Shown: positions 1,823 to 10,217 of the stretch, one piece after another
How the letters are laid out: each line of letters starts with the position of its first letter
Position numbering within the stretch: the first letter of the stretch is position 1
Source: a virus
Direction: 5' to 3' (one strand)
DNA length: 26,169 bases
UHGV virus genome: UHGV-0156931
Position numbers and translations under genes: made by a program
Notes under the pieces: model-generated
Told to the model about the DNA's origin: nothing
Databases searched by the model: none
Seen by the model: the letters and a program-made list of their open reading frames with translations, nothing else

Positions 1823-3154
1823 TCACTGAAGTAAAAAAACTTTTAAAGCATCTTTCACAATATTTGTTGGTTCACCAATACCGCCACTACCTTTTAAAAA
1901 ATGGTATTCACTCATTTCTGCCCATTGTCTTTTTATATTTTCCTCAGTAGGTAAAAGAGATGAGTTTTCAGATAAGTATTTGTAAACTATTCCAAATATA
2001 GCATATTCATAATTATCTACATTATATTCACTTGTTTGATATGAAAATTTAGACAAACCAAACAATTTCATGATTGATTGAGCATCAACTTTATCTTCAA
2101 GAAAGTTGAGAGCTAACTCTCGGTTAAAAGTGTAGATTATTATCGCTAGAGTCCTGTAATAACAATATCCATAAATATATTTGTTGCTAATTTTGTCGCC
2201 TGATAGTAGTTGGTATATTTCAACATATCTAGCAAGTGTTTCAACCTCACGTAATGATAATTTACTACTTTCAATGAACTGTAAGAAAATATCTTCGCTG
2301 GCTTCTACTGCAGCGGTCAGCCTTTCAGATTGCTCACATAGCATCATCCAATGATTTTTGGAAGTTAAAGTGTCATTATAATTATCTTCCTTAAAGGTAA
2401 CAGGAAGGCTGTATGTAAATTTTATAAATTTGTCAAGATAACGGTTGGAGTCTACAGAAGAGCCATAGATATGATTTATGGATGCTTTTAGTTGAGTTGT
2501 GTTTGCAATTAATAAAAAGTTAATGTTTTTTATATCAAAAACATGTTTTATATTTTCAATAATAGAAATGGCAAAACTAGGCTTACATCTGTCTAACTCA
2601 TCTATAATTATTGTTAGTTTACTTTCTCCAGCTAATTTGGTTAGTACTTCTTTTAGAGCAAGAACGTTCTTTTGTGCCTCGATATGATCTTCTAACAGAG
2701 CCTCGATGGTTCCATCGATAGCTGAATTTGCAGCGTCTTTGATAACCTCTTCAAATTCCTCATTAATTTCATCCGCATTTTGTTTTAATACCCAACCAGC
2801 ACCAGCTTTGAGTACAGTCTTAAGTCCGAATCTGAGGGCTGGTAATGCCTTAGATATTAATTCCTTTTTTTCATCGCTATTATATAGAGCTGCAATTGCG
2901 GCCATTATTGTAAGTATGGGAGCATCGTTGTGATCTTCAGTAAAAGCATCTATATAAACTACTTTATGATTGGTCGAGTTTATTTCAATTAAGGATGCTA
3001 ACTTTTTTGAAAACTCTGTTTTTCCAGTCCCCCAGTCCCCATCTATGACCATAGGTGAAACAGGAATATTAGACTCTAGCAAACTTATTATTTTTTCTGC
3101 AATGGCTTTTCTTTTATATTCATCACGTATATCGAAAGTTATATCTGTGCTCAT
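1823..3154 (-). CDS. KAP-family P-loop NTPase (accessory cargo in the lysogenic operon)
   Basis: 443 aa. Walker A GDWGTGKT (GxWGxGKT/S is the KAP signature), Walker B IIIDELDRC. RBS AAGGAAA upstream of the ATG at 3154. Visibly AT-rich compared with the phage backbone. Sits between cI and int. Confidence 0.8.
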   Translation of the reverse strand: MSTDITFDIRDEYKRKAIAEKIISLLESNIPVSPMVIDGDWGTGKTEFSKKLASLIEINSTNHKVVYIDAFTEDHNDAPILTIMAAIAALYNSDEKKELISKALPALRFGLKTVLKAGAGWVLKQNADEINEEFEEVIKDAANSAIDGTIEALLEDHIEAQKNVLALKEVLTKLAGESKLTIIIDELDRCKPSFAISIIENIKHVFDIKNINFLLIANTTQLKASINHIYGSSVDSNRYLDKFIKFTYSLPVTFKEDNYNDTLTSKNHWMMLCEQSERLTAAVEASEDIFLQFIESSKLSLREVETLARYVEIYQLLSGDKISNKYIYGYCYYRTLAIIIYTFNRELALNFLEDKVDAQSIMKLFGLSKFSYQTSEYNVDNYEYAIFGIVYKYLSENSSLLPTEENIKRQWAEMSEYHFLKGSGGIGEPTNIVKDALKVFLLQ

Positions 3155-3167
3155 TCATATTTCCTTA

Positions 3168-3350
3168 TTATTTGATGCATGTTTTTTTGGATTTACTGAT
3201 GGTTCCATCATTGCAAACAAATTTTCCATCAGAGGTACAGTGAGAGACACCTCCCTTTTTCCCAGAACAAGGATAATTTTTAGCATAGGTAGTTAGTGGG
3301 TTTAATAACAAAGAGCATGATAAAACCACAAAAAAAAACTTACCAAGCAT
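3168..3350 (-). CDS. Small exported Lys-rich, 4-Cys peptide (60 aa), unknown function
   Basis: N-terminal signal-peptide-like segment [23 protein letters not shown]. Predicted mature ~37 aa with 4 Cys and 8 Lys. GGAGG RBS 5 nt upstream of the ATG. Starts ~15 nt after the cI stop and ends 13 nt before the KAP gene start. Confidence 0.5.
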
Positions 3351-3365
3351 AGTTTCCTCCAGGTA

Positions 3366-4022
3366 TTATCTAACATACTTAACTGTTAAGCTTATAATTT
3401 TTCCAATTATTTCAACATCTTCTATCTTGCACTCGAAGGCTCTGTTTCCACCTTCAACGAAAATTCTTCCACCGGGTAAACGAGTGATGTCGCGGATTGT
3501 TATTTCGCCATCAATACTTATTACCCATTTACCATCACGTATATCATCAAATTCTTTATCACAAATAAATTCAGAATTGTTATCTGTGATGACAAAAGGT
3601 TTTTTAAACGTAGAGGGTAGAAATCCCTTATCAAAAATATAAAAACCGTCTTCCTGCAATGCTCCATCAGACAATAAATATTTTACTACTTCTATAGTAT
3701 TTGTATTTGCTGATGCTTGCTTTGAACCATGCCCTGTTGTTAGCCAATTAAGCGAGGTACCCGTTTCAAGGGCGCACTGGATTACCCAATCTGCCGGAAA
3801 AATATCACGCATATAACGCGTTGCCATGGTGCTCTTAGAAACACCTAAATGATCACAGAGAGCCTGACGGGTACCGAACCCGTATGCTTCAACCAAACGT
3901 TCTATGGCTTTCTTACCGCCGCTATTGAAATCCACAAATCCTCCAAAGAAATCCAAAATTCGTTGACAGATTCCAAAAGCGATCTTAAAGTTGAACCAGA
4001 AGTCTTCTTTTGGAGCCTTCAC
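3366..4022 (-). CDS. cI: Immunity repressor, 186 CI type (N-terminal HTH)
   Basis: 218-aa ORF starting at GTG 4022. Segment ERLVEAYGFGTRQALCDHLGVSKSTMATRYMR...CALETGTSLNWLTTGHG matches the HTH region pattern of 186-type CI as recalled. First gene of the leftward operon ending in int. True start may be internal. Confidence 0.8.
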   Translation of the reverse strand: MKAPKEDFWFNFKIAFGICQRILDFFGGFVDFNSGGKKAIERLVEAYGFGTRQALCDHLGVSKSTMATRYMRDIFPADWVIQCALETGTSLNWLTTGHGSKQASANTNTIEVVKYLLSDGALQEDGFYIFDKGFLPSTFKKPFVITDNNSEFICDKEFDDIRDGKWVISIDGEITIRDITRLPGGRIFVEGGNRAFECKIEDVEIIGKIISLTVKYVR

Positions 4023-4080
4023 TACTAATCACGACAAACAACGGCTCGCCACAAGCCATATCTAGAAGGAATGTTGCCTT
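4023..4080. promoter_or_regulatory. Lysis-lysogeny switch region between divergent cI and apl
   Basis: 58-bp gap between start codons of oppositely oriented cI and apl. By analogy with 186, pR/pL and repressor operators are expected here or overlapping the adjacent gene ends. No individual sites were mapped. Confidence 0.4.
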
Positions 4081-4284
4081 ATGACACCTAACATTTCAAT
4101 TACTCTGAATACACCACATGTCACAATCGAACGTTATAGCGAACTGACTGGCCTTTCTATTGATACGATTAACGACATGTTGGCTGATGGCCGACTACCT
4201 CGTCATCGTCTTCGTAAAGACAAAAAACGTGAAAAGGTAATGATTAACCTGGCTGCTCTGACTGTTGATGCTTTGTCTGCTTAA
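4081..4284 (+). CDS. apl: Apl/Cox-type excisionase and switch regulator (small HTH protein)
   Basis: 67 aa, first gene of the rightward operon opposite cI. Basic C-terminal segment ([20 protein letters not shown]). Position and size fit the Cox/Apl family. Confidence 0.75.
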
Positions 4285-4348
4285 TAGACGTCTATTTTCG
4301 CAATAAGACGCTGAGTTCGATTTTGCGATAAGTTCGGAATTGAAAACC

Positions 4349-4858
4349 ATGTTTGATTACCAAGTTTCCAAACATCCACATTTTGATGAAGCCTGTCGTG
4401 CATTCGCACTGCGCCACAACCTGGTGCAGCTGGCAGGACGTGCAGGAATGAATGTGCAGATTCTGCGAAACAAGTTGAACCCTGCTCAACCTCATTTATT
4501 AACCGCACCAGAAATTTGGCTGCTTACCGATCTGACTGAAGATTCGACGCTGGTAGATGGCTTTCTGGCTCAGATTCACTGTCTGCCATGTGTACCGATT
4601 AATGAGGTAGCAAAAGAGAAACTGCCACATTACGTCATGAGTGCAACCGCAGAGATCGGACGTGTTGCTGCAGGTGCGGTATCTGGCGATGTAAAAACCA
4701 GTGCAGGTCGTCGTGATGCTATCAGCAGCATTAACTCTGTAACACGACTGATGGCGCTGGCTGCTGTTTCATTGCAGGCCCGTTTACAGGCTAATCCTGC
4801 GATGGCGAGTGCAGTTGATACCGTGACTGGCCTCGGTGCTTCATTCGGTTTGCTGTGA
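4349..4858 (+). CDS. cII: CII-type regulator (phage 186 CII / CP76 family)
   Basis: ORF 4340..4858 begins at TTG; the ATG at 4349 gives 169 aa starting [12 protein letters not shown]..., matching the recalled length and N-terminus of 186 CII. Immediately follows apl. Confidence 0.85.
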
Positions 4859-4865
4859 GGTGCTT

Positions 4866-5099
4866 ATGCTGACGAAAGAACCATCATTTGCATCGCTGCT
4901 GGTAAAACAAAGTCCGGCAATGCACTACGGTCACGGCTGGATTTATTTACCTTGTGGGAAAAAGTGGCATCCAAGTTTTGAATTACAACCCCGGCAACAG
5001 GCTTACCGGGGAAGAAATAAAAAGCGATTCCTACAAAGATTTATGGTTAACGTGGCAAACAACCTGCGAACCAAGCGAAAAGTTTTTCTTGGAAGCTGA
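4866..5099 (+). CDS. Small early protein in the fil position; paralogous 5-prime end to the ORF at 5723
   Basis: ATG at 4866 with GAGGTG upstream. 77 aa, MLTKEPSFASLLVKQSPAMHYGHGWIYLPCGKKWHP... The first ~28 codons lie in a 63-bp segment repeated at 5686-5748. 3-prime end overlaps the convergent antisense ORF 5047..5505. Confidence 0.4.
   Translation: MLTKEPSFASLLVKQSPAMHYGHGWIYLPCGKKWHPSFELQPRQQAYRGRNKKRFLQRFMVNVANNLRTKRKVFLGS
4883..4945. repeat. 63-bp direct repeat, copy 1 (one mismatch versus copy 2)
   Basis: atcatttgcatcgctgctggtaaaacaaagTccggcaatgcactacggtcacggctggat recurs at 5686-5748 with C for T. Coordinates +/-2. Confidence 0.85.
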
Positions 5100-5505
5100 G
5101 GTTTACATCGTCAACCCGACCACAGGCAATAGCAGCTCTTTTGTAGGCAGGGTTTAACAAAGATCCGAATGTTGTGGAGTCAGAGTGATGCAAAGCTTTC
5201 AATTTTTGTGCAATGAACTGTGGAGACAATTCATCCTCGGCGTAAAGCAACTCACCATATTGTCGGCTTTGTACGCTTGCTCGTTCCGCAATAATAGCTG
5301 GTTGCCATACAAGTTGGATTGTTGCGATTACAACAACAGGAAAAGCGAACAACCATTCCAGACCTGTATTAGCAAATACAGCTGTTCCGCTTATAAGTTG
5401 GATTGCTGTCATTAATTTATCAGCTCGACCATGGAACGTTGCTGTCATTAGTTCAAGGTAATAACAGTAGTGTAATTGGAAGTATTCGGAGCTTTGTTTA
5501 GTCAT
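5047..5505 (-). CDS. Antisense-oriented membrane protein (152 aa), candidate moron
   Basis: ATG at 5505 with AGGAAT-type RBS. Hydrophobic segment LEWLFAFPVVVIATIQLVW. Transcribed opposite to the early operon and visibly lower in GC than its flanks. No recognised family. Confidence 0.5.
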   Translation of the reverse strand: MTKQSSEYFQLHYCYYLELMTATFHGRADKLMTAIQLISGTAVFANTGLEWLFAFPVVVIATIQLVWQPAIIAERASVQSRQYGELLYAEDELSPQFIAQKLKALHHSDSTTFGSLLNPAYKRAAIACGRVDDVNLSFQEKLFAWFAGCLPR

Positions 5506-5514
5506 GCCGGATTC

Positions 5515-5595
5515 CTATTTCTTCTCTTGCCCCGGTTCAGGCTGAGGTGCTGGAGCCGGGCGAGGGAGTACATGAAAGTTGTCTGTTTCTGACAT
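5515..5595 (-). CDS. Possible 26-aa Pro-rich peptide upstream of the antisense membrane-protein gene
   Basis: ATG at 5595 with a strong AGGAG RBS (7-nt spacer). Translation MSETDNFHVLPRPAPAPQPEPGQEKK. Stop TAG at 5515-5517, 10 nt before the next ATG. Very short, so it may be chance. Confidence 0.25.
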   Translation of the reverse strand: MSETDNFHVLPRPAPAPQPEPGQEKK

Positions 5596-5685
5596 CAGTT
5601 TTCTCCTTTGAGGGGTAGATGATTGTTAGCACAAATAGTCTACCACTGAGGCACGCGCCGGGCGTGTAGAAAAATTCCCGGCACA

Positions 5686-5748
5686 ATCATTTGCATCGCT
5701 GCTGGTAAAACAAAGCCCGGCAATGCACTACGGTCACGGCTGGATCAT
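5686..5748. repeat. 63-bp direct repeat, copy 2
   Basis: See copy 1. Here the repeat supplies the 5-prime part of ORF 5723..5965. Confidence 0.85.
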
Positions 5749-5965
5749 GGGTGAGGATGGTAAACGCTGGCATCCATGTTATTCACAAGATGAATTGCTG
5801 TCTGAAGTGACCACGAGGAAACGGAGAAAGTCCAAATGTATGCGGCAGAAAGTGAAGTGGTTTATCAGTTTCGTTACAGAGGGGATAGTTATTCAGTACC
5901 TGAAGATGATTTGCTCTGTTGTTATCCGTCGTTGTCGGGCGATGGCAGTTACTTTTTCACACTAA
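5723..5965 (+). CDS. Small early ORF (80 aa), second paralogue of the fil-like gene; extent uncertain
   Basis: MHYGHGWIMGEDGKRWHPCYSQDELL... parallels the copy at 4866 beyond the identical DNA (GKKWHP versus GKRWHP). No good RBS. 3-prime half overlaps ORF 5836..6060 in another frame. Confidence 0.3.
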   Translation: MHYGHGWIMGEDGKRWHPCYSQDELLSEVTTRKRRKSKCMRQKVKWFISFVTEGIVIQYLKMICSVVIRRCRAMAVTFSH

Positions 5966-6060
5966 AGGATGGGACGTTTTTACGGGGAGAGCAGGTTAAA
6001 GAGACGGTACGAAAAAATGTATCTCCCCTTGAGCGTTACCGTAAGAACAAAGAACGATAG
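5836..6060 (+). CDS. Hypothetical early protein (74 aa)
   Basis: ATG with GGAG upstream. Acidic, plausible composition (MYAAESEVVYQFRYRGDSYSVPEDDLL...). Overlaps the previous ORF. Confidence 0.45.
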   Translation: MYAAESEVVYQFRYRGDSYSVPEDDLLCCYPSLSGDGSYFFTLKDGTFLRGEQVKETVRKNVSPLERYRKNKER

Positions 6061-6082
6061 TTGCGTTTTGGGGATATGAATT

Positions 6083-6424
6083 ATGGCAATTAATGGCGCT
6101 GCGGCGACTGTTCCATTAAGCCCCGGTGAACGCCTGAATGGACTTAATCACATTGCGGAATTAAGAGCGAAAGTTTTTGGCCTGAATATTGAGTCAGAGC
6201 TTGAGCGGTTTATTAAAGATATGCGTGATCCACGGGATATCAATAATGAACAAAATAAACGGGCACTGGCTGCCATATTCTTTATGGCAAAAATTCCGGC
6301 TGAACGTCATAGCATCAGCATTAATGAGCTGACCACTGACGAAAAGCGGGAGCTGATTAAAGCAATGAATCATTTTCGTGCAGTGGTGAGCTTATTTCCC
6401 AGACGGCTAACCATGCCGAATTAA
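6083..6424 (+). CDS. Hypothetical early protein (113 aa)
   Basis: Intact ORF in the early operon between cII and A. No recognisable motif. Confidence 0.55.
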   Translation: MAINGAAATVPLSPGERLNGLNHIAELRAKVFGLNIESELERFIKDMRDPRDINNEQNKRALAAIFFMAKIPAERHSISINELTTDEKRELIKAMNHFRAVVSLFPRRLTMPN

Positions 6425-6491
6425 CCAACTAATGAAATTCATGGCGTAAATCCGCCAGGCATCCCTTTATCTAAATTCAGGAGAATTGATT

Positions 6492-6725
6492 ATGCGTAAT
6501 ATTGAAACCCTCACGACTAAAACCGGACCGGATGATGCAGGGCTTAATATTTTACTGACAGAGGCTCGTCTGGAAGAACGCCGGGCAAGGGCTGAAGCAA
6601 TGGCAGCTCGCCTTGATAGCCTGGCGTGTCATATCTCATCCCTTCAGCTAAACCACGTGGAAGCAGCAGAACTACTGCGTGTAACTGCTGAAGCAATCCA
6701 GAACGAAGCGCAGGAGATCCACTAA
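6492..6725 (+). CDS. Hypothetical early protein (77 aa, predicted helical)
   Basis: ATG at 6492 with AGGAG upstream (ORF 6486 begins at TTG). Stop overlaps the next start. Confidence 0.5.
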   Translation: MRNIETLTTKTGPDDAGLNILLTEARLEERRARAEAMAARLDSLACHISSLQLNHVEAAELLRVTAEAIQNEAQEIH

Positions 6726-6952
6726 TGGCTGATGCAATGGATCTCGTACAGCAGCGCGTTGAAGAAGAACGCCAGCGCCATATTCGTGCTGCCCGTGCCA
6801 AAACACCGGGCGTGTCTCGCGTGCTTTGTATTGAATGTGAAGCGCCAATTCCGCCAGCACGACGCCGCGCCATTCCGGGAGTGCAGCTTTGCATTACCTG
6901 CCAGGAAATCGCAGAGCTGAAAGGCAAACATTACAACGGAGGTGCTGTATGA
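6725..6952 (+). CDS. TraR/DksA-family C4 zinc-finger protein
   Basis: 75 aa with CIEC-x17-CITC, the spacing typical of the TraR/DksA C4 zinc finger. Translationally coupled to neighbours on both sides. Confidence 0.75.
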   Translation: MADAMDLVQQRVEEERQRHIRAARAKTPGVSRVLCIECEAPIPPARRRAIPGVQLCITCQEIAELKGKHYNGGAV

Positions 6953-7806
6953 GCACCATCCTGAAATGGGCGGGAAATAAAACCGCCATTATGTCCGAAC
7001 TGAAAAAACACCTTCCTGCTGGCCCGCGACTGGTTGAACCTTTCGCGGGTTCCTGTGCTGTGATGATGGAGACGGATTACCCCAGCTATCTGGTTGCGGA
7101 TATTAATCCTGATTTAATCAACCTCTATAAAAAGGTTGCCGCTGATTGTGAATCGTTTATATCTCGCGCCAGAGTTTTATTTGAGATCGCAAACAGGGAG
7201 GTGGCTTATTACAACATAAGGCAGGAGTTTAATTACTCCACTGAAATTACTGATTTCATGAAAGCGGTATATTTCCTGTATCTCAATCGTCACGGTTACC
7301 GTGGTTTATGTCGCTATAACAAGAGCGGGCATTTCAACATTCCCTACGGTAATTATAAAAATCCGTATTTCCCTGAAAAAGAAATTCGCGCATTTGCAGA
7401 AAAGGCCCAGCGAGCAACGTTTATCTGCGCCAGCTTTGATGAAACGCTGGCGATGTTGAAGGCGGGGGATGTGGTGTATTGCGATCCGCCGTATGACGGT
7501 ACGTTTTCCGGCTATCACACTGACGGCTTCACTGAAGATGACCAGTATCACCTGGCATCTGTTCTTGAACATCGGTCATCAGAAGGACATCCGGTCATTG
7601 TTTCTAACAGTGACACATCCCTGATCCGTTCGCTGTATCGCAATTTTACTCACCACTACATCAAGGCAAAACGCAGCATCGGTGTGGCAGCTGGCGAGGG
7701 TAAATCAGCAACAGAAATCATTGCTGTTTCCGGGCCGCGCTGCTGGGTGGGATTTGATTATTCGCGTGGCGTGGATAGTTCTGCCGTGTACGGAGTACGT
7801 GCATGA
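6949..7806 (+). CDS. dam: Orphan DNA adenine methyltransferase (Dam-like)
   Basis: ATG at 6949 gives [11 protein letters not shown]... (285 aa). SAM-binding motif FAGSCAV and catalytic DPPY (VVYCDPPY). No adjacent restriction endonuclease gene. Confidence 0.9.
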
Positions 7807-10217
7807 GTCATGCCGATATGAACAACTGCTGCGGCTTTAACGAGGCTGCCGCAGCATTCTCATGGAACAGCCCGAAAAAGGCCATTAACCCTTATCTGGA
7901 CCCGGCGGAAGTTGCGCCGGTTTCTACGCTTTCAAACCTGATCACTCTGTACGCTGCCGATAACGAGCAGGAACAGTTGCGCCGCGAGGCACTGAGTGAT
8001 CAGGTCTGGGAGCGTTATTTCTTTAATGAATCACGTGATCCTGTCCAGCGCGAAATGGAGCAGGATAAGCTCATTAGCCGGGCAAAGCTGGCGCATGAGC
8101 AGCAGCGTTTTAATTCAGACATGGTCATTCTGGCGGACGTCAACGCCCAGCCTTCCCATATCAGCAAGCCGCTGATGCAACGTATTGAATACTTCAGCAG
8201 CCTGGGCAGGCCAAAGGCTTATTCCCGCTATTTACGTGAGACGATTAAGCCATGTCTGGAACGACTGGAGCATGTACGCGACAGTCAGCTATCTGCATCT
8301 TTTCGCTTTATGGCAAGCCATGAAGGGCTGGACGGCCTGCTGATCCTGCCTGAAATGAGTCAGGATCAGGTGAAACGCCTGTCCACCCTGGTAGCTGCGC
8401 ATATGAGTATGTGCCTTGATGCAGCTTGTGGTGATTTGTATGCCACCGATGACGTTAAGCCAGAAGAAATCCGCAAGACATGGGAAAAGGTGGCAGCGGA
8501 AACCCTGCGTCTGGATGTCATCCCACCTGCGTTTGAGCAACTCCGTCGGAAAAGAAACCGCCGTAAACCCGTGCCCTATGAACTCATTCCGGGTTCGCTG
8601 GCGCGTATGTTGTGCGCCGACTGGTGGTATCGGAAATTATGGAAGATGCGTTGCGAATGGCGGGAAGAGCAGTTGCGCGCTGTTTGCCTGGTCAGCAAAA
8701 AAGCATCTCCTTATGTCAGCTATGAAGCCGTGATGCATAAACGTGAGCAGCGCCGTAAGTCGCTGGAGTTTTTCCGTTCTCATGAACTGGTGAACGAAGA
8801 CGGCGACACGCTGGACATGGAGGATGTGGTAAACGCCAGCAGCAGCAACCCTGCGCATCGCCGCAATGAGATGATGGCCTGTGTTAAAGGTCTGGAGCTT
8901 ATCGCGGAAATGCGCGGTGACTGCGCCGTTTTCTACACTATCACCTGTCCGTCGCGTTTCCATTCCACGCTAAATAACGGCAGACCAAACCCGACCTGGA
9001 CAAACGCGACGGTAAGACAAAGCAGCGATTATCTGGTCGGCATGTTTGCTGCATTTCGTAAGGCGATGCACAAAGCCGGGTTGCGCTGGTATGGCGTGCG
9101 GGTGGCTGAGCCGCATCATGATGGCACAGTTCACTGGCACCTGTTGTGTTTCATGCGCAAAAAAGACCGCCGTGCCATCACTGCATTACTGCGTAAGTTT
9201 GCCATCCGTGAAGACCGCGAGGAGCTGGGCAATAACACTGGGCCGCGCTTTAAGTCTGAGTTGATTAACCCGCGCAAAGGAACGCCGACAAGCTACATCG
9301 CGAAATATATCAGTAAGAACATTGACGGTCGTGGTCTGGCTGGCGAGATCAGCAAGGAAACGGGTAAATCTCTGCGTGATAACGCTGAATACGTGAATGC
9401 CTGGGCGTCTCTGCATCGTGTTCAGCAATTCCGCTTCTTTGGTATTCCGGGGCGTCAGGCTTACCGTGAACTTCGCTTGCTGGCTGGTCAGGCGGCAAGG
9501 CAACAGGGTGACAAAAAAGCAGGTGCGCCGGTACTGGATAACCCGCGTCTTGATGCCATTCTGGCTGCTGCTGATGCTGGTTGTTTTGCCACCTACATCA
9601 TGAAGCAGGGCGGCGTACTGGTTCCCCGTAAATATCACCTCATCAGAACCGCTTATGAAATCAACGAAGAGCCGACCGCCTATGGCGATCACGGCATTCG
9701 TATTTATGGCATCTGGTCACCCATTGCAGAGGGCAAGATCTGCACTCATGCAGTGAAGTGGAAAATGGTTCGTAAAGCCGTTGACGTTCAGGAGGCGGCA
9801 GCCGACCAGGGCGCTTGCGCCCCTTGGACTCGTGGCAATAACTGTCCCCTTGCTGAAAATTTGTACCAACAAGGGAAAGACAAATCAGCTGATGGAGATA
9901 CCAGAACGGATATCACCCGCATGGATGACAAGGAGTTGCACGATTACCTGCACAGTATGAGCAAAAAAGAGCGCCGGGAACTGGCAGCAAGGTTACGCCT
10001 TGTGAAACCGAAACGGCGTAAAGACTACAAACAGCGAATTACAGATCATCAGCGACAGCAGCTCGTGTATGAACTGAAGTCCAGGGGATTTGATGGCAGC
10101 GAGAAAGAGGTCGATTTACTGCTTCGCGGCGGCAGTATTCCGTCAGGAGCAGGCCTGCGTATCTTCTATCGGAACCAGCGTTTGCAGGAAGATGATAAGT
10201 GGCGAAACCTGTATTAA
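7803..10217 (+). CDS. A: Replication initiation endonuclease (P2 gene A family, rolling-circle)
   Basis: 804-aa ORF, last and largest gene of the early operon, start overlapping the dam stop. Size and position fit P2 gpA. Family assigned by synteny and length; catalytic residues not mapped. Confidence 0.85.

Follow-up and report, generated by a model that had tools for sequence, protein, structure and literature searches.

The window, by which we mean the whole stretch of 26,169 nucleotides analysed here (UHGV virus genome UHGV-0156931), very probably carries a hybrid of two versions, both found in nature, of the post-cII region of P2/186-like prophages, in which a left part of the Fels-2 type and a right part of the 813R9 type were linked by one non-homologous joining. 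The two sides of the joint match separate existing arrangements, as the left side follows Fels-2 and GPEC60 up to 5686 and the right side follows 813R9 from 5686/5687. The 60-nt direct repeat found in this region belongs to a well-explained mosaic joint, which represents ordinary phage mosaicism and involves no new mechanism. The features concerned are listed below.

4349..4858, plus strand: cII (CP76 family; Pfam PF06892, E = 1.8e-41; RefSeq annotation in strain NGF1)
4866..5099, plus strand: fil' (copy 1), intact Fil-family allele of 77 aa that has an ATG and a ribosome-binding site of its own
4883..4942, plus strand: repeat copy 1, made up of fil' nt 18-77; the conserved cII-fil 5' block ends with these 60 nt
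4943..5046, plus strand: fil'-specific 3' part, unalignable with fil
5047..5505, minus strand: gene of the 152-aa membrane protein, which runs against the early lytic operon; its PHROG match, phrog_6315 (E = 4e-76), is of unknown function
5515..5595, minus strand: 26-aa proline-rich ORF (MSETDNFHVLPRPAPAPQPEPGQEKK), the first cassette gene, with an AGGAG Shine-Dalgarno sequence
5596..5686, minus strand: cassette upstream (putative promoter) block, conserved in a six-genus alignment
5686..5687, no strand: novel non-homologous joint, where the Fels-2 type ends with A5686 and the 813R9 type begins at fil nt 18-19
5686..5745, plus strand: repeat copy 2, fil nt 18-77
5687..5965, plus strand: 5'-truncated fil of the 813R9 type (copy 2), without the ribosome-binding site and the first 17 nt
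5836..6060, plus strand: orf74 (phrog_4312), overlapping the long fil ORF out of frame; it comes from the right-hand parent
6083..6424, plus strand: DUF5347 gene (Pfam PF17282, E = 3.7e-33), the conserved right border of the variable region

The direct repeat and the two fil genes

Exact comparison delimits the direct repeat to 60 nt (4883-4942 and 5686-5745) with one mismatch (T4913 versus C5716), and the bases right after the two copies differ (TTA after copy 1, CAT after copy 2). An earlier note on this DNA had described a 63-bp repeat with a single T/C difference; the long near-perfect repeat is real, but its limits were drawn 3 nt too far at the 3' end, and the stretch 4883-4945 contains four differences rather than one, because the three bases past 4942 differ. 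A repeat finder returns 63 nt as well, shifted to 4880-4942 and 5683-5745, with two mismatches. The pattern occurs twice in the window, against 0.00 matches expected from 100 shuffles. As the same note had observed, both copies encode SFASLLVKQSPAMHYGHGWI (the final Ile codon differs, ATT against ATC), and a loose alignment continues beyond them: sequence identity at the 803-nt offset collapses past 4942, and a weaker in-register match of 78% follows at 4955-4977 and 5758-5780, which spans GKKWHP versus GKRWHP. The T/C difference at 4913/5716 was considered as a marker of parental origin and rejected, as it is polymorphic in both types.

A near-identical 60-mer (0-2 differences) occurs once in each single-copy relative of either type, both in E. 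coli and in Klebsiella. Since the single-copy phages already have the 60-mer, gene conversion is not needed to account for the near-identity of the two copies. Where a genome record showed two match places in the search for the tandem arrangement, this reflects the repeat matching itself and not a second prophage.

In phage 186, the early lytic operon driven by pR has fil (PF10893) as its first gene past cII. The first copy in the window, fil', occupies this canonical position directly downstream of cII, with its ATG at 4866, 8 nt past the cII stop codon, and a GAGG Shine-Dalgarno sequence, whereas copy 2 lies 803 nt further on. Both copies match Phage_186_Fil (PF10893) well above the gathering score of 25 bits, fil' with 83.6 bits (residues 5-58, model positions 1-51 of 56) and copy 2 with 76.5 bits (model positions 3-48), which bears out the view that the repeat duplicates the 5' end of a fil-like gene. 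Copy 2 also matches phrog_32377 over positions 7-97 of 98 and is 93% identical to the 813R9 FIL protein. It was likewise correctly seen that only the first copy has a native ATG and ribosome-binding site, as copy 2 lacks both the first 17 nt and the ribosome-binding site, its start region being replaced by the upstream region of the cassette. RefSeq starts copy 2 at the internal ATG 5723, ahead of which no Shine-Dalgarno sequence is visible in the window sequence, and in strain GF130 the corresponding version is 41 aa long. Copy 2 is probably an untranslated remnant. The second 'Fil family protein' that RefSeq assigns to about 38 E. coli genomes, among them the model strains NC101 and NGF1, is likewise probably what remains of a beheaded gene.

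The 77-aa fil' allele is also found in Fels-2, GPEC60, Citrobacter, Klebsiella R390 and Enterobacter. Its dN/dS values are 0.02-0.08 at codons 1-26 and 0.28-0.65 at codons 27-60.

The non-homologous joint and its origin

Relatives with only one fil copy, which the earlier note had suggested looking for, exist in two forms. The 813R9/4LV2017 type carries cII, fil, orf74 and DUF5347; window positions 4314-4942 and 5683-6500 align to positions 1470-2097 and 2035-2852 of 813R9, and the overlap of 63 nt between these matches means that the window is 813R9 with exactly 803 bp added. In the Fels-2/GPEC60 type, cII is followed by fil', the antisense cassette and DUF5347, and there is no second fil; Fels-2 aligns unbroken with window positions 4348-5686 at 82% identity, with homology returning at 6083, and E. 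coli GPEC60 and 14EC029 share this arrangement at 95% identity. The DUF5347 gene is present in every E. coli, Salmonella and Klebsiella arrangement. The segment that contains orf74 (5823-6082) is found at 90-99% identity in 596 of 5,426 complete E. coli genomes and is absent from Klebsiella ST11 phi8.4 and Fels-2.

At the joint, A5686 is the only base common to both parents (GGCACAA/C... versus ...GAACCA/TCATTT, with the slash marking the joint). Past this point Fels-2, GPEC60 and Klebsiella R390 continue into a native right flank, TTCAAATAGG..., which is missing from the window. To the left, homology continues throughout the cII-fil 5' block, some 600 nt in length, where identity is 95-99% among all E. 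coli and Klebsiella types; cII forms the left part of this block, which is common to all variants, and shows about 0-6 differences per 50 nt when compared to the 813R9, Klebsiella ST11 phi8.4 and GPEC60 types. A breakpoint inside cII was sought and abandoned, as sliding mismatch counts do not separate the candidate parents there. The mosaic joint proposed in the earlier note is supported, with the Fels-2 type on the left, the 813R9 type on the right and no significant homology at 5686/5687. Its suggestion that an alternative allele at the fil position travels with the antisense cassette also agrees with the data, and the fil'-specific segment 4943-5046 is never found in E. coli genomes without the cassette. 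The proposed graft through a short shared stretch is not supported, and the 60-mer is not shown to be where the crossover took place: the sole novel joint is non-homologous and lies just upstream of copy 2, and the homology on the left is really about 600 nt long, comprising the whole cII-fil 5' block. Nor does the repeat date the cargo as an insertion, given that the cassette occupies the same position, in antisense orientation, in seven genera.

The cII-fil region is found in 1,324 of the 5,426 complete E. coli genomes and the cassette in 40, of which 38 have the tandem arrangement and 2 the Fels-2 type. The 38 independently assembled genomes carry the 2.2-kb tandem arrangement at 98.8-99.9% identity and its cassette at 99.9-100%, and six IMG/VR contigs as well as the draft genome of Escherichia sp. 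E1V33 also have the tandem. That assembly or scaffolding created the duplication is a negligible prospect: beyond the general risk that repeats pose to assemblers nothing speaks for it, whereas the same arrangement was obtained from these 38 genomes by many laboratories and platforms, it recurs in another Escherichia species and in IMG/VR contigs, and the two copies can be told apart by one base and by their flanks. Assembly error, which the earlier note had named as a refutation, is excluded by the agreement of the 38 genomes, E1V33 and the six contigs. All nine tandem loci that were read, from different strains or contigs, share an identical junction string. Together with the cassette identity of 99.9-100% across the 38 genomes, this shows, at the level of the compared loci, that the joint has a single origin; judged by the same two observations, it is the hybrid, and not the cassette, that is recent.

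Similar sequences could arise if the 803-bp unit were a mobile insertion (site-specific, transposon-like, or a circle integrated via the 60-mer), with the repeat as an att-like sequence or a target duplication. Campbell-type integration is expected to leave a direct repeat around the cargo, and a circle in which 5686 is joined to fil' nt 18 would give the same sequence upon integration through the 60-mer. However, no integrase, transposase or terminal inverted repeat was found in or at 4943-5686, where none of the three ORFs (the fil' 3' part, the 152-aa protein and the 26-aa ORF) has a recombinase domain. Moreover, in all its other contexts the cassette has no flanking fil repeat (43 Fels-2-type, 6 Yersinia/Hafnia-type and 3-4 R390-type loci), and 55 of the 62 IMG/VR cassette loci lack a second fil. 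An independent reverse-order tandem on IMG/VR contig L027 (full fil, an orf74-like gene, a fil' fragment starting at the YGHGWI motif, and the cassette) has a different breakpoint and a repeat of only 23 nt. Finally, as the left homology runs for about 600 nt through cII, there is nothing that would restrict the exchange to the 60-mer. We regard a mobile insertion as highly unlikely.

It is scarcely credible that the tandem is ancestral, with the 813R9 type derived from it when the 60-nt repeats recombined and the Fels-2 type when the second fil and orf74 were deleted. It is true that deletion between the repeats would yield exactly the 813R9 structure, and that repeat-mediated deletion is known in this module, as contig L072 has lost 84 nt between 11-nt repeats. 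Such a history would be supported by tandem loci that are paraphyletic and deep with respect to both single-copy types, but the data show the opposite: the tandem is nearly clonal with one junction, whereas hundreds of E. coli genomes contain the 813R9 type (90-99% identity) and the Fels-2 type extends across several genera. Furthermore, Fels-2-type phages keep 25-38 nt of a native right flank that is absent from the tandem and are therefore not simple deletion products, and copy 2 has neither start codon nor ribosome-binding site. When the 803-bp deletion product was simulated and searched for in the 5,426 genomes, no match of at least 99% was found, the best single-copy match being 97.8%.

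Direct parents of the hybrid were likewise not found at 99% identity or above (the closest Fels-2-type cassette reaches 95% and the closest single-copy 813R9-type region 97.8%), and for this reason the parents are defined as types and not as identified genomes. In the hybrid origin preferred here, a Fels-2-type parent would have been broken just past the putative promoter block of the cassette, after A5686, and an 813R9-type parent after fil nt 17, and one non-homologous joining event would have linked the two breaks. A second exchange, should one be needed to complete the genome, could have been ordinary homologous recombination elsewhere, for example in the cII-fil 5' block, or alternatively the Campbell-type integration of a circularised fragment. 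As the parents would have been joined out of register, the product has two fil genes, namely an intact fil' and a fil without start codon and ribosome-binding site. The repeat length of 60 nt results from the distance between the fil breakpoint (nt 18) and the point where fil and fil' diverge (nt 77), upstream of which all these phages share the near-identical cII-fil 5' block. While we infer the order of these events, the sequence outcome is the same for a single unequal crossover of two genomes and for the integration of a circularised fragment via the 60-mer. The event is also symmetrical, and it could just as well be said that a Fels-2-type phage acquired a beheaded fil and orf74. If the two 60-mers recombined, exactly 803 bp would be lost and an intact 813R9-type fil restored; the search of the 5,426 genomes described above yielded no such product.

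The formation of a temperate-phage mosaic can thus be reconstructed, since public genomes contain both parental arrangements as well as the hybrid with its exact non-homologous joint. The second hybrid of opposite order (L027) shows that modules have repeatedly become stacked downstream of cII, and the joint leaves current ideas on phage evolution unchanged.

The antisense cassette

The cassette is found at the same site and in antisense orientation in Salmonella, Citrobacter, Klebsiella, Enterobacter, Yersinia, Hafnia and Pectobacterium prophages, with 67-90% amino-acid identity. From this distribution it is an old resident of the post-cII position across the Enterobacterales and not a recent arrival. 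The 3' end of the 152-aa gene overlaps fil' by 53 nt, and its product has a hydrophobic span at residues 50-73. The homologues are all about 152 aa long and come from Enterobacterales prophages, and a wider family of 170 representatives (about 150-165 aa), collected by exhaustive HMM search, adds no annotation. The protein has no named family in Pfam, PADLOC or PHROGs, a profile search of solved structures gave nothing below E = 0.079, and an AlphaFold2 model built from 10 sequences is poor (pLDDT 65.5). The Fels-2 record annotates the 152-aa antisense gene on the wrong strand. The 26-aa ORF is kept, with synonymous changes, in Fels-2, Citrobacter, Klebsiella, Enterobacter, Yersinia, Hafnia and Pectobacterium. 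With dN/dS values of 0.04-0.05 for the 152-aa protein and 0.05-0.10 for the 26-aa ORF, codon comparison shows both cassette ORFs to be under strong purifying selection (0.04-0.10).

The upstream block, conserved in six genera, contains an extended -10-like element, TGGTAGACT, at 5645..5637, and a scan of 5596-5686 for the sigma-70 consensus found no canonical -35/-10 pair. A G+C-rich hairpin lies just downstream of the 152-aa gene at 4989-5011 and forms a terminator-like site on the minus strand (5011..4989); it is conserved in all fil'-bearing loci, with a T-tract only in the E. coli version. The cassette may be a self-transcribed gene unit, expressed in the lysogen from a putative extended -10 promoter of its own. 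An Rfam scan of 3000-8000 gave nothing relevant, and no match was found in the literature for 186 fil and dhr together, for STM2733-2735 or for WP_000166365.

The two-gene membrane cassette is a reasonable candidate for a test of prophage exclusion or defence. A broader proposal, in which the post-cII position is a dedicated cargo site, the 26-aa ORF and a SLATT-like 152-aa protein form an undescribed exclusion or abortive-infection module, the overlap with fil' is functional and the 60-nt repeat serves to shed the module, appears rather unlikely. If it were true, transcription from pR through the cassette would silence the module during the induction of its own prophage, and silencing via the fil' overlap would explain why the fil' 3' fragment travels with the cassette, even when beheaded as in L027. 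In addition, lysogens could use the 60-nt repeat to lose the module precisely and regain an intact fil.

Comparison with known systems

Similarly to the SLATT/2TM effectors of CBASS, Pycsar and DRT systems, the larger cassette protein has about 150 aa, a helical hairpin and one or more hydrophobic spans. Weak matches to the PADLOC '2TM Effector' profile were found in 8 of 60 members of the 152-aa family (best E = 2.7e-4), and some distant members weakly match RTasSLATT, Pfam SLATT_4, PycTM or DUF4231, whereas the protein encoded in the window matches none of the SLATT/2TM profiles even at E <= 10. Unlike these effectors, the cassette has no cyclase, SLOG or reverse-transcriptase partner and its sole partner is the 26-aa ORF; at every locus the 152-aa gene is accompanied by cII or fil', by the 26-aa ORF and by genes of early replication.

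Like morons, lysogenic-conversion cassettes and the cargo of P2-like hotspots, the cassette is a small, putatively self-transcribed unit that opposes the operon, and as in the P2-like hotspots it lies at a variable site between conserved genes. Unlike the cargo of these hotspots, it is old and conserved rather than variable and has no known defence function. According to a text search, the P2-like hotspot paper discusses neither the site between cII/fil and DUF5347 nor fil itself (Rousset et al. 2022, PMC9122126).

In coliphage 186, fil is located immediately downstream of cII (PMC7708051). Both copies in the window likewise belong to the Fil family and copy 1 directly follows cII, but unlike in 186, two fil alleles stand in tandem, the second is beheaded and an antisense cassette lies between them. 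Phage 186 was not among the relatives listed by one megablast search.

The closest parallels to the joint itself are the mosaic joints of the Hendrix/Hatfull model, which arise when tailed-phage genomes recombine non-homologously (illegitimate recombination), and among them that of mycobacteriophage Island3, in which a part of a gene is duplicated beside an inserted gene (gene 68), leaving a duplicated gene end (PMC3029335). Here too, similarity switches abruptly at a point without homology. As in Island3, a short stretch of a neighbouring gene is duplicated beside extra DNA and a functional gene is preserved at the joint; unlike in Island3, the window duplicates a 5' and not a 3' gene end, and the breakpoint falls inside a gene and not at a gene boundary. 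In contrast to the Hendrix/Hatfull examples, both parental arrangements are still sampled in nature, and for this reason the joining event can be reconstructed base by base.

The repeated fil sequence

The antisense cassette of the window is bracketed by a direct repeat of 60 nt, 4883-4942 and 5686-5745, which carry a single mismatch (T4913 / C5716) by exact comparison. The earlier note had described a near-perfect repeat of 63 bp; the repeat is real, but it is 60 nt long and the interval had been placed 3 nt too far 3', as the bases after the 60-mer differ (TTA at 4943-4945, CAT at 5746-5748). A repeat search reported a 63-nt version with two mismatches (4880-4942 / 5683-5745), and the repeat pattern had two matches in the window and none in shuffled sequence. 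As the same note had observed, both copies encode one peptide, SFASLLVKQSPAMHYGHGWI, followed by a second, weaker in-register similarity (4955-4977 / 5758-5780, 78% identity, GKKWHP versus GKRWHP), and only copy 1 has a native ATG (4866) with a Shine-Dalgarno sequence. Copy 2 is without the first 17 nt and the ribosome-binding site. The region consists of the following parts:

Upstream neighbour of fil': cII, the shared left block
4866-5099: fil' (copy 1), 77 aa, Pfam Phage_186_Fil 83.6 bits (cutoff 25 bits)
4989-5011: conserved G+C-rich hairpin within fil', just downstream of the 152-aa gene
5505..5047, minus: 152-aa gene, phrog_6315
5595..5515, minus: 26-aa ORF, MSETDNFHVLPRPAPAPQPEPGQEKK, AGGAG Shine-Dalgarno sequence, not annotated
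90 nt: cassette upstream block, containing the extended -10-like TGGTAGACT
5687-5965: copy 2, Phage_186_Fil 76.5 bits, phrog_32377 from position 7
5836-6060: orf74, phrog_4312, downstream of copy 2
6083-6424: DUF5347 gene, downstream of copy 2

Copy 1 matches the Phage_186_Fil model over almost its full length, therefore fil' is a complete diverged allele rather than the head of fil joined to foreign sequence. Its 3' end overlaps the 152-aa gene by 53 nt, and the hairpin is terminator-like by scan in E. coli, with the T-tract missing in other genera. phrog_32377 is a 98-aa 'cell division inhibitor' family. The 98-aa Fil ORF overlaps orf74 by 130 nt in another frame (window 5687-5965 versus 5836-6060; 2875-3212 in locus L006), and its C-terminal extension may be read-through rather than real protein, because the Pfam Fil domain extends only to about residue 52 and the Fil ORF of strain GF130 stops after the domain.

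The window is a P2/186-like prophage, integrated beside rcdA, and over 4300-6500 it shares 99.9% identity with E. coli NGF1 and NC101 and with some 30 further complete genomes. The tandem arrangement is present in 38 complete E. coli genomes, Escherichia sp. E1V33 and six IMG/VR contigs, which excludes the assembly artefact considered previously, and the junction string is the same in all nine tandem loci read. Within the tandem, fil' would supply the Fil function, and copy 2 is probably an untranslated remnant, since its ATG at 5723 lacks a Shine-Dalgarno sequence and GF130 has a 41-aa version. orf74 appears to retain its own ribosome-binding site, and lytic transcripts would have to cross the cassette in antisense.

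Parental arrangements and the joint

A search for single-copy relatives, as proposed earlier, yielded both the 813R9 and the Fels-2 type. The former (vB_EcoM-813R9, Klebsiella phage 4LV2017 and many E. coli prophages) has cII, fil (98 aa) and DUF5347, with an orf74 that is overlapped by fil and not annotated. Window 4314-4942 and 5683-6500 align to 813R9 with an overlap of 63 nt in the subject, therefore the window equals the 813R9 type plus exactly 803 bp. Salmonella phage Fels-2 has cII, fil' (77 aa), the antisense cassette and DUF5347; its alignment to the window is unbroken over 4348-5686 at 82% and restarts at 6083, with 38 nt of its own in place of 5687-6082. E. coli GPEC60-12-649 and 14EC029 share this arrangement at 95% identity. 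A third, shorter type, in which a 66-aa fil immediately precedes DUF5347 and orf74 is absent, occurs in Klebsiella ST11-VIM1phi8.4, Salmonella phage RE2010 and Escherichia phage Cartapus.

In alignments of Fels-2, GPEC60 and Klebsiella sp. R390, the right cassette end reads ...CCCGGCACAA and then C/T-TTCAAATAGGCATA...; in the window ...CCCGGCACAA runs into TCATTTGCATCG..., fil sequence starting at nt 19. The A at 5686 is the sole base common to both parents at this joint, which is non-homologous and the only novel one of the region. At the 4942/4943 edge, every fil' allele in every genus parts from fil at the same base, and this edge is not new. All E. coli and Klebsiella types agree at 95-99% identity in cII and the first 77 nt of fil, regardless of downstream content. 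Because this block is common to all types, the 60-mer is the part of it between the fil nt 18 breakpoint of the right-hand parent and the nt 77 divergence. Neither gene conversion nor a special recombination sequence is needed to account for the 60-mer: single-copy phages of either type already have it once, altered at 0-2 positions, and its T/C polymorphism is independent of type.

The tandem very probably arose by one illegitimate joining of a Fels-2-type genome to an 813R9-type genome, and homologous exchange elsewhere would have completed the genome. The joining may have been a direct unequal crossover or the integration of a circularised fragment through cII-fil 5' homology, and both give the same sequence outcome. 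The recombination joint proposed previously, with a graft through the short shared stretch, is possible but not required, the available homology being about 600 nt rather than 60. RecA-type recombination of the 60-mers would delete exactly 803 bp and restore an intact fil; such a product was not found at 99% identity or above, and the closest single-copy relative is at 97.8%.

A second, independent tandem is found in an IMG/VR contig (L027, IMGVR_UViG_3300036772_000077, 2900-3900), in the order cII, full-length fil, orf74-like gene, antisense 82-aa ORF, fil' fragment, cassette and DUF5347, the opposite of the window. The fil' fragment begins at YGHGWI, with stop codons upstream, and the repeat is only 23 nt (3063-3085 / 3796-3818). 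Both tandems have an intact first copy and a beheaded second one, with different breakpoints, and the comparison supports recurrent out-of-register, non-homologous joining at the post-cII site. The different L027 breakpoint speaks against a mobile unit whose ends are fixed. The antisense 82-aa ORF (MLTQIEKDRIEKLENEV...) lies beside an orf74-like gene in R390 (L017, 2274-2522) and in L027 (3240-3488), and the order of the orf74 and cassette modules is reversed between the two, hence modules are stacked and shuffled at this site.

Spread, age and content of the cassette

Among 5,426 complete E. coli genomes, the cII-fil region was found in 1,324 and the orf74 segment (5823-6082) in 596, both mostly at 90-99% identity to the window. 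The cassette (4943-5686) was present in 40 genomes, 38 of them tandem (99.9-100%) and two of the Fels-2 type (95%). The 62 cassette loci of IMG/VR comprise 43 of the Fels-2 type, six of the window type, six of a Yersinia/Hafnia type, where fil is absent and the cassette lies directly against cII, three or four of an R390 type (cassette, then orf74-like gene and another antisense ORF of 82 aa) and singletons, including L027. The tandem is best regarded as the derived state, formed once, because it is almost clonal with one junction, the single-copy types are varied and widely distributed, Fels-2-type phages contain flank sequence missing from the tandem, and copy 2 has no start codon. The tandem later entered at least two phage backgrounds: 33 genomes match the window from 4300 onward at 99.7% or above, and in five (GF130, Ecol_224, MS6192, MS6193 and CH468) likeness starts only at cII, the cI-side genes differing in GF130, the one read of these five. 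The earlier note took the repeat to date the cargo as an insertion, a claim that is not supported. In Yersinia, Hafnia and Pectobacterium the cassette is always antisense, just after cII, and shows 67-73% identity at the amino-acid level; at this position it is old.

The 26-aa ORF and upstream block are conserved in six genera and the 152-aa gene in seven, with dN/dS of 0.05-0.10 for the ORF and 0.04-0.05 for the gene; the cassette is a genuine two-gene unit. The window 152-aa protein has no match in Pfam or PADLOC. AlphaFold2 models it weakly (pLDDT 65.5) as a long helical hairpin, and hydropathy indicates a clear membrane span at residues 50-73 with a weaker one before it. An exhaustive profile search gave 170 family representatives of about 150-165 aa, a minority of which weakly match CBASS '2TM effector', DRT-associated SLATT, SLATT_4, PycTM and DUF4231 (best E = 2.7e-4); this SLATT/2TM resemblance gives a lead but does not assign the protein to a family.

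The 152-aa gene has an internal repeat spaced 84 nt (5288-5330 / 5372-5414, 72% identity), around window 5322-5405. A tandem-type IMG/VR contig (L072, 2501-2872) has an in-frame 84-nt deletion between 11-nt repeats CAATCCAACTT, which removes 28 residues (34-61), and with them the weaker hydrophobic stretch and the first part of the main membrane span. Some copies are inactivated, with an in-frame stop in Enterobacter wuhouensis (L018, 3001-3456); L080 looks frameshifted by tblastn, and in L065 it is cII and fil' that give split matches. The Fels-2 record (L001, NC_010463.1) carries a plus-strand hypothetical, STM2733.1 (2341-2745), opposite the 152-aa gene (2658..2203), probably a wrong-strand gene call, and no annotated record examined includes the 26-aa ORF. 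In the upstream block, an imperfect palindrome, ACGCGCCGGGCGT (5654-5666, within 5650-5668), lies at the expected -35 position; its conservation between genera is partial, and a regulator could bind there.

Neighbouring cargo and known systems

Between int and cI the window carries a KAP-family P-loop NTPase (1823-3154, minus), which matches the PADLOC candidate defence family PDC-S20 (E = 2.9e-171), with a 60-aa ORF alongside (3168-3350, minus). This slot holds different cargo in relatives (loci including L007 and L010-L013), with other ATPases in 813R9 and GPEC60, and looks like a defence-cargo hotspot. In Hafnia and Pectobacterium prophages it contains an AAA_15/AAA_21 ATPase and DUF4435, a pair that we take to resemble PARIS, and in Yersinia KwaA/KwaB lie beyond int.

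No paper on the cassette or on tandem fil genes was found in the literature. In phage 186, cII directly precedes fil (PMC7708051), and among the P2-like defence hotspots that Rousset et al. (PMC9122126) describe, a text search returned no post-cII site. The observation of the repeat is confirmed with a 3-nt correction and its earlier interpretation partly supported; the tandem is what phage mosaicism through non-homologous recombination ordinarily produces. Similarly, in mycobacteriophage Island3 the end of a gene is partly duplicated next to an inserted gene (PMC3029335).
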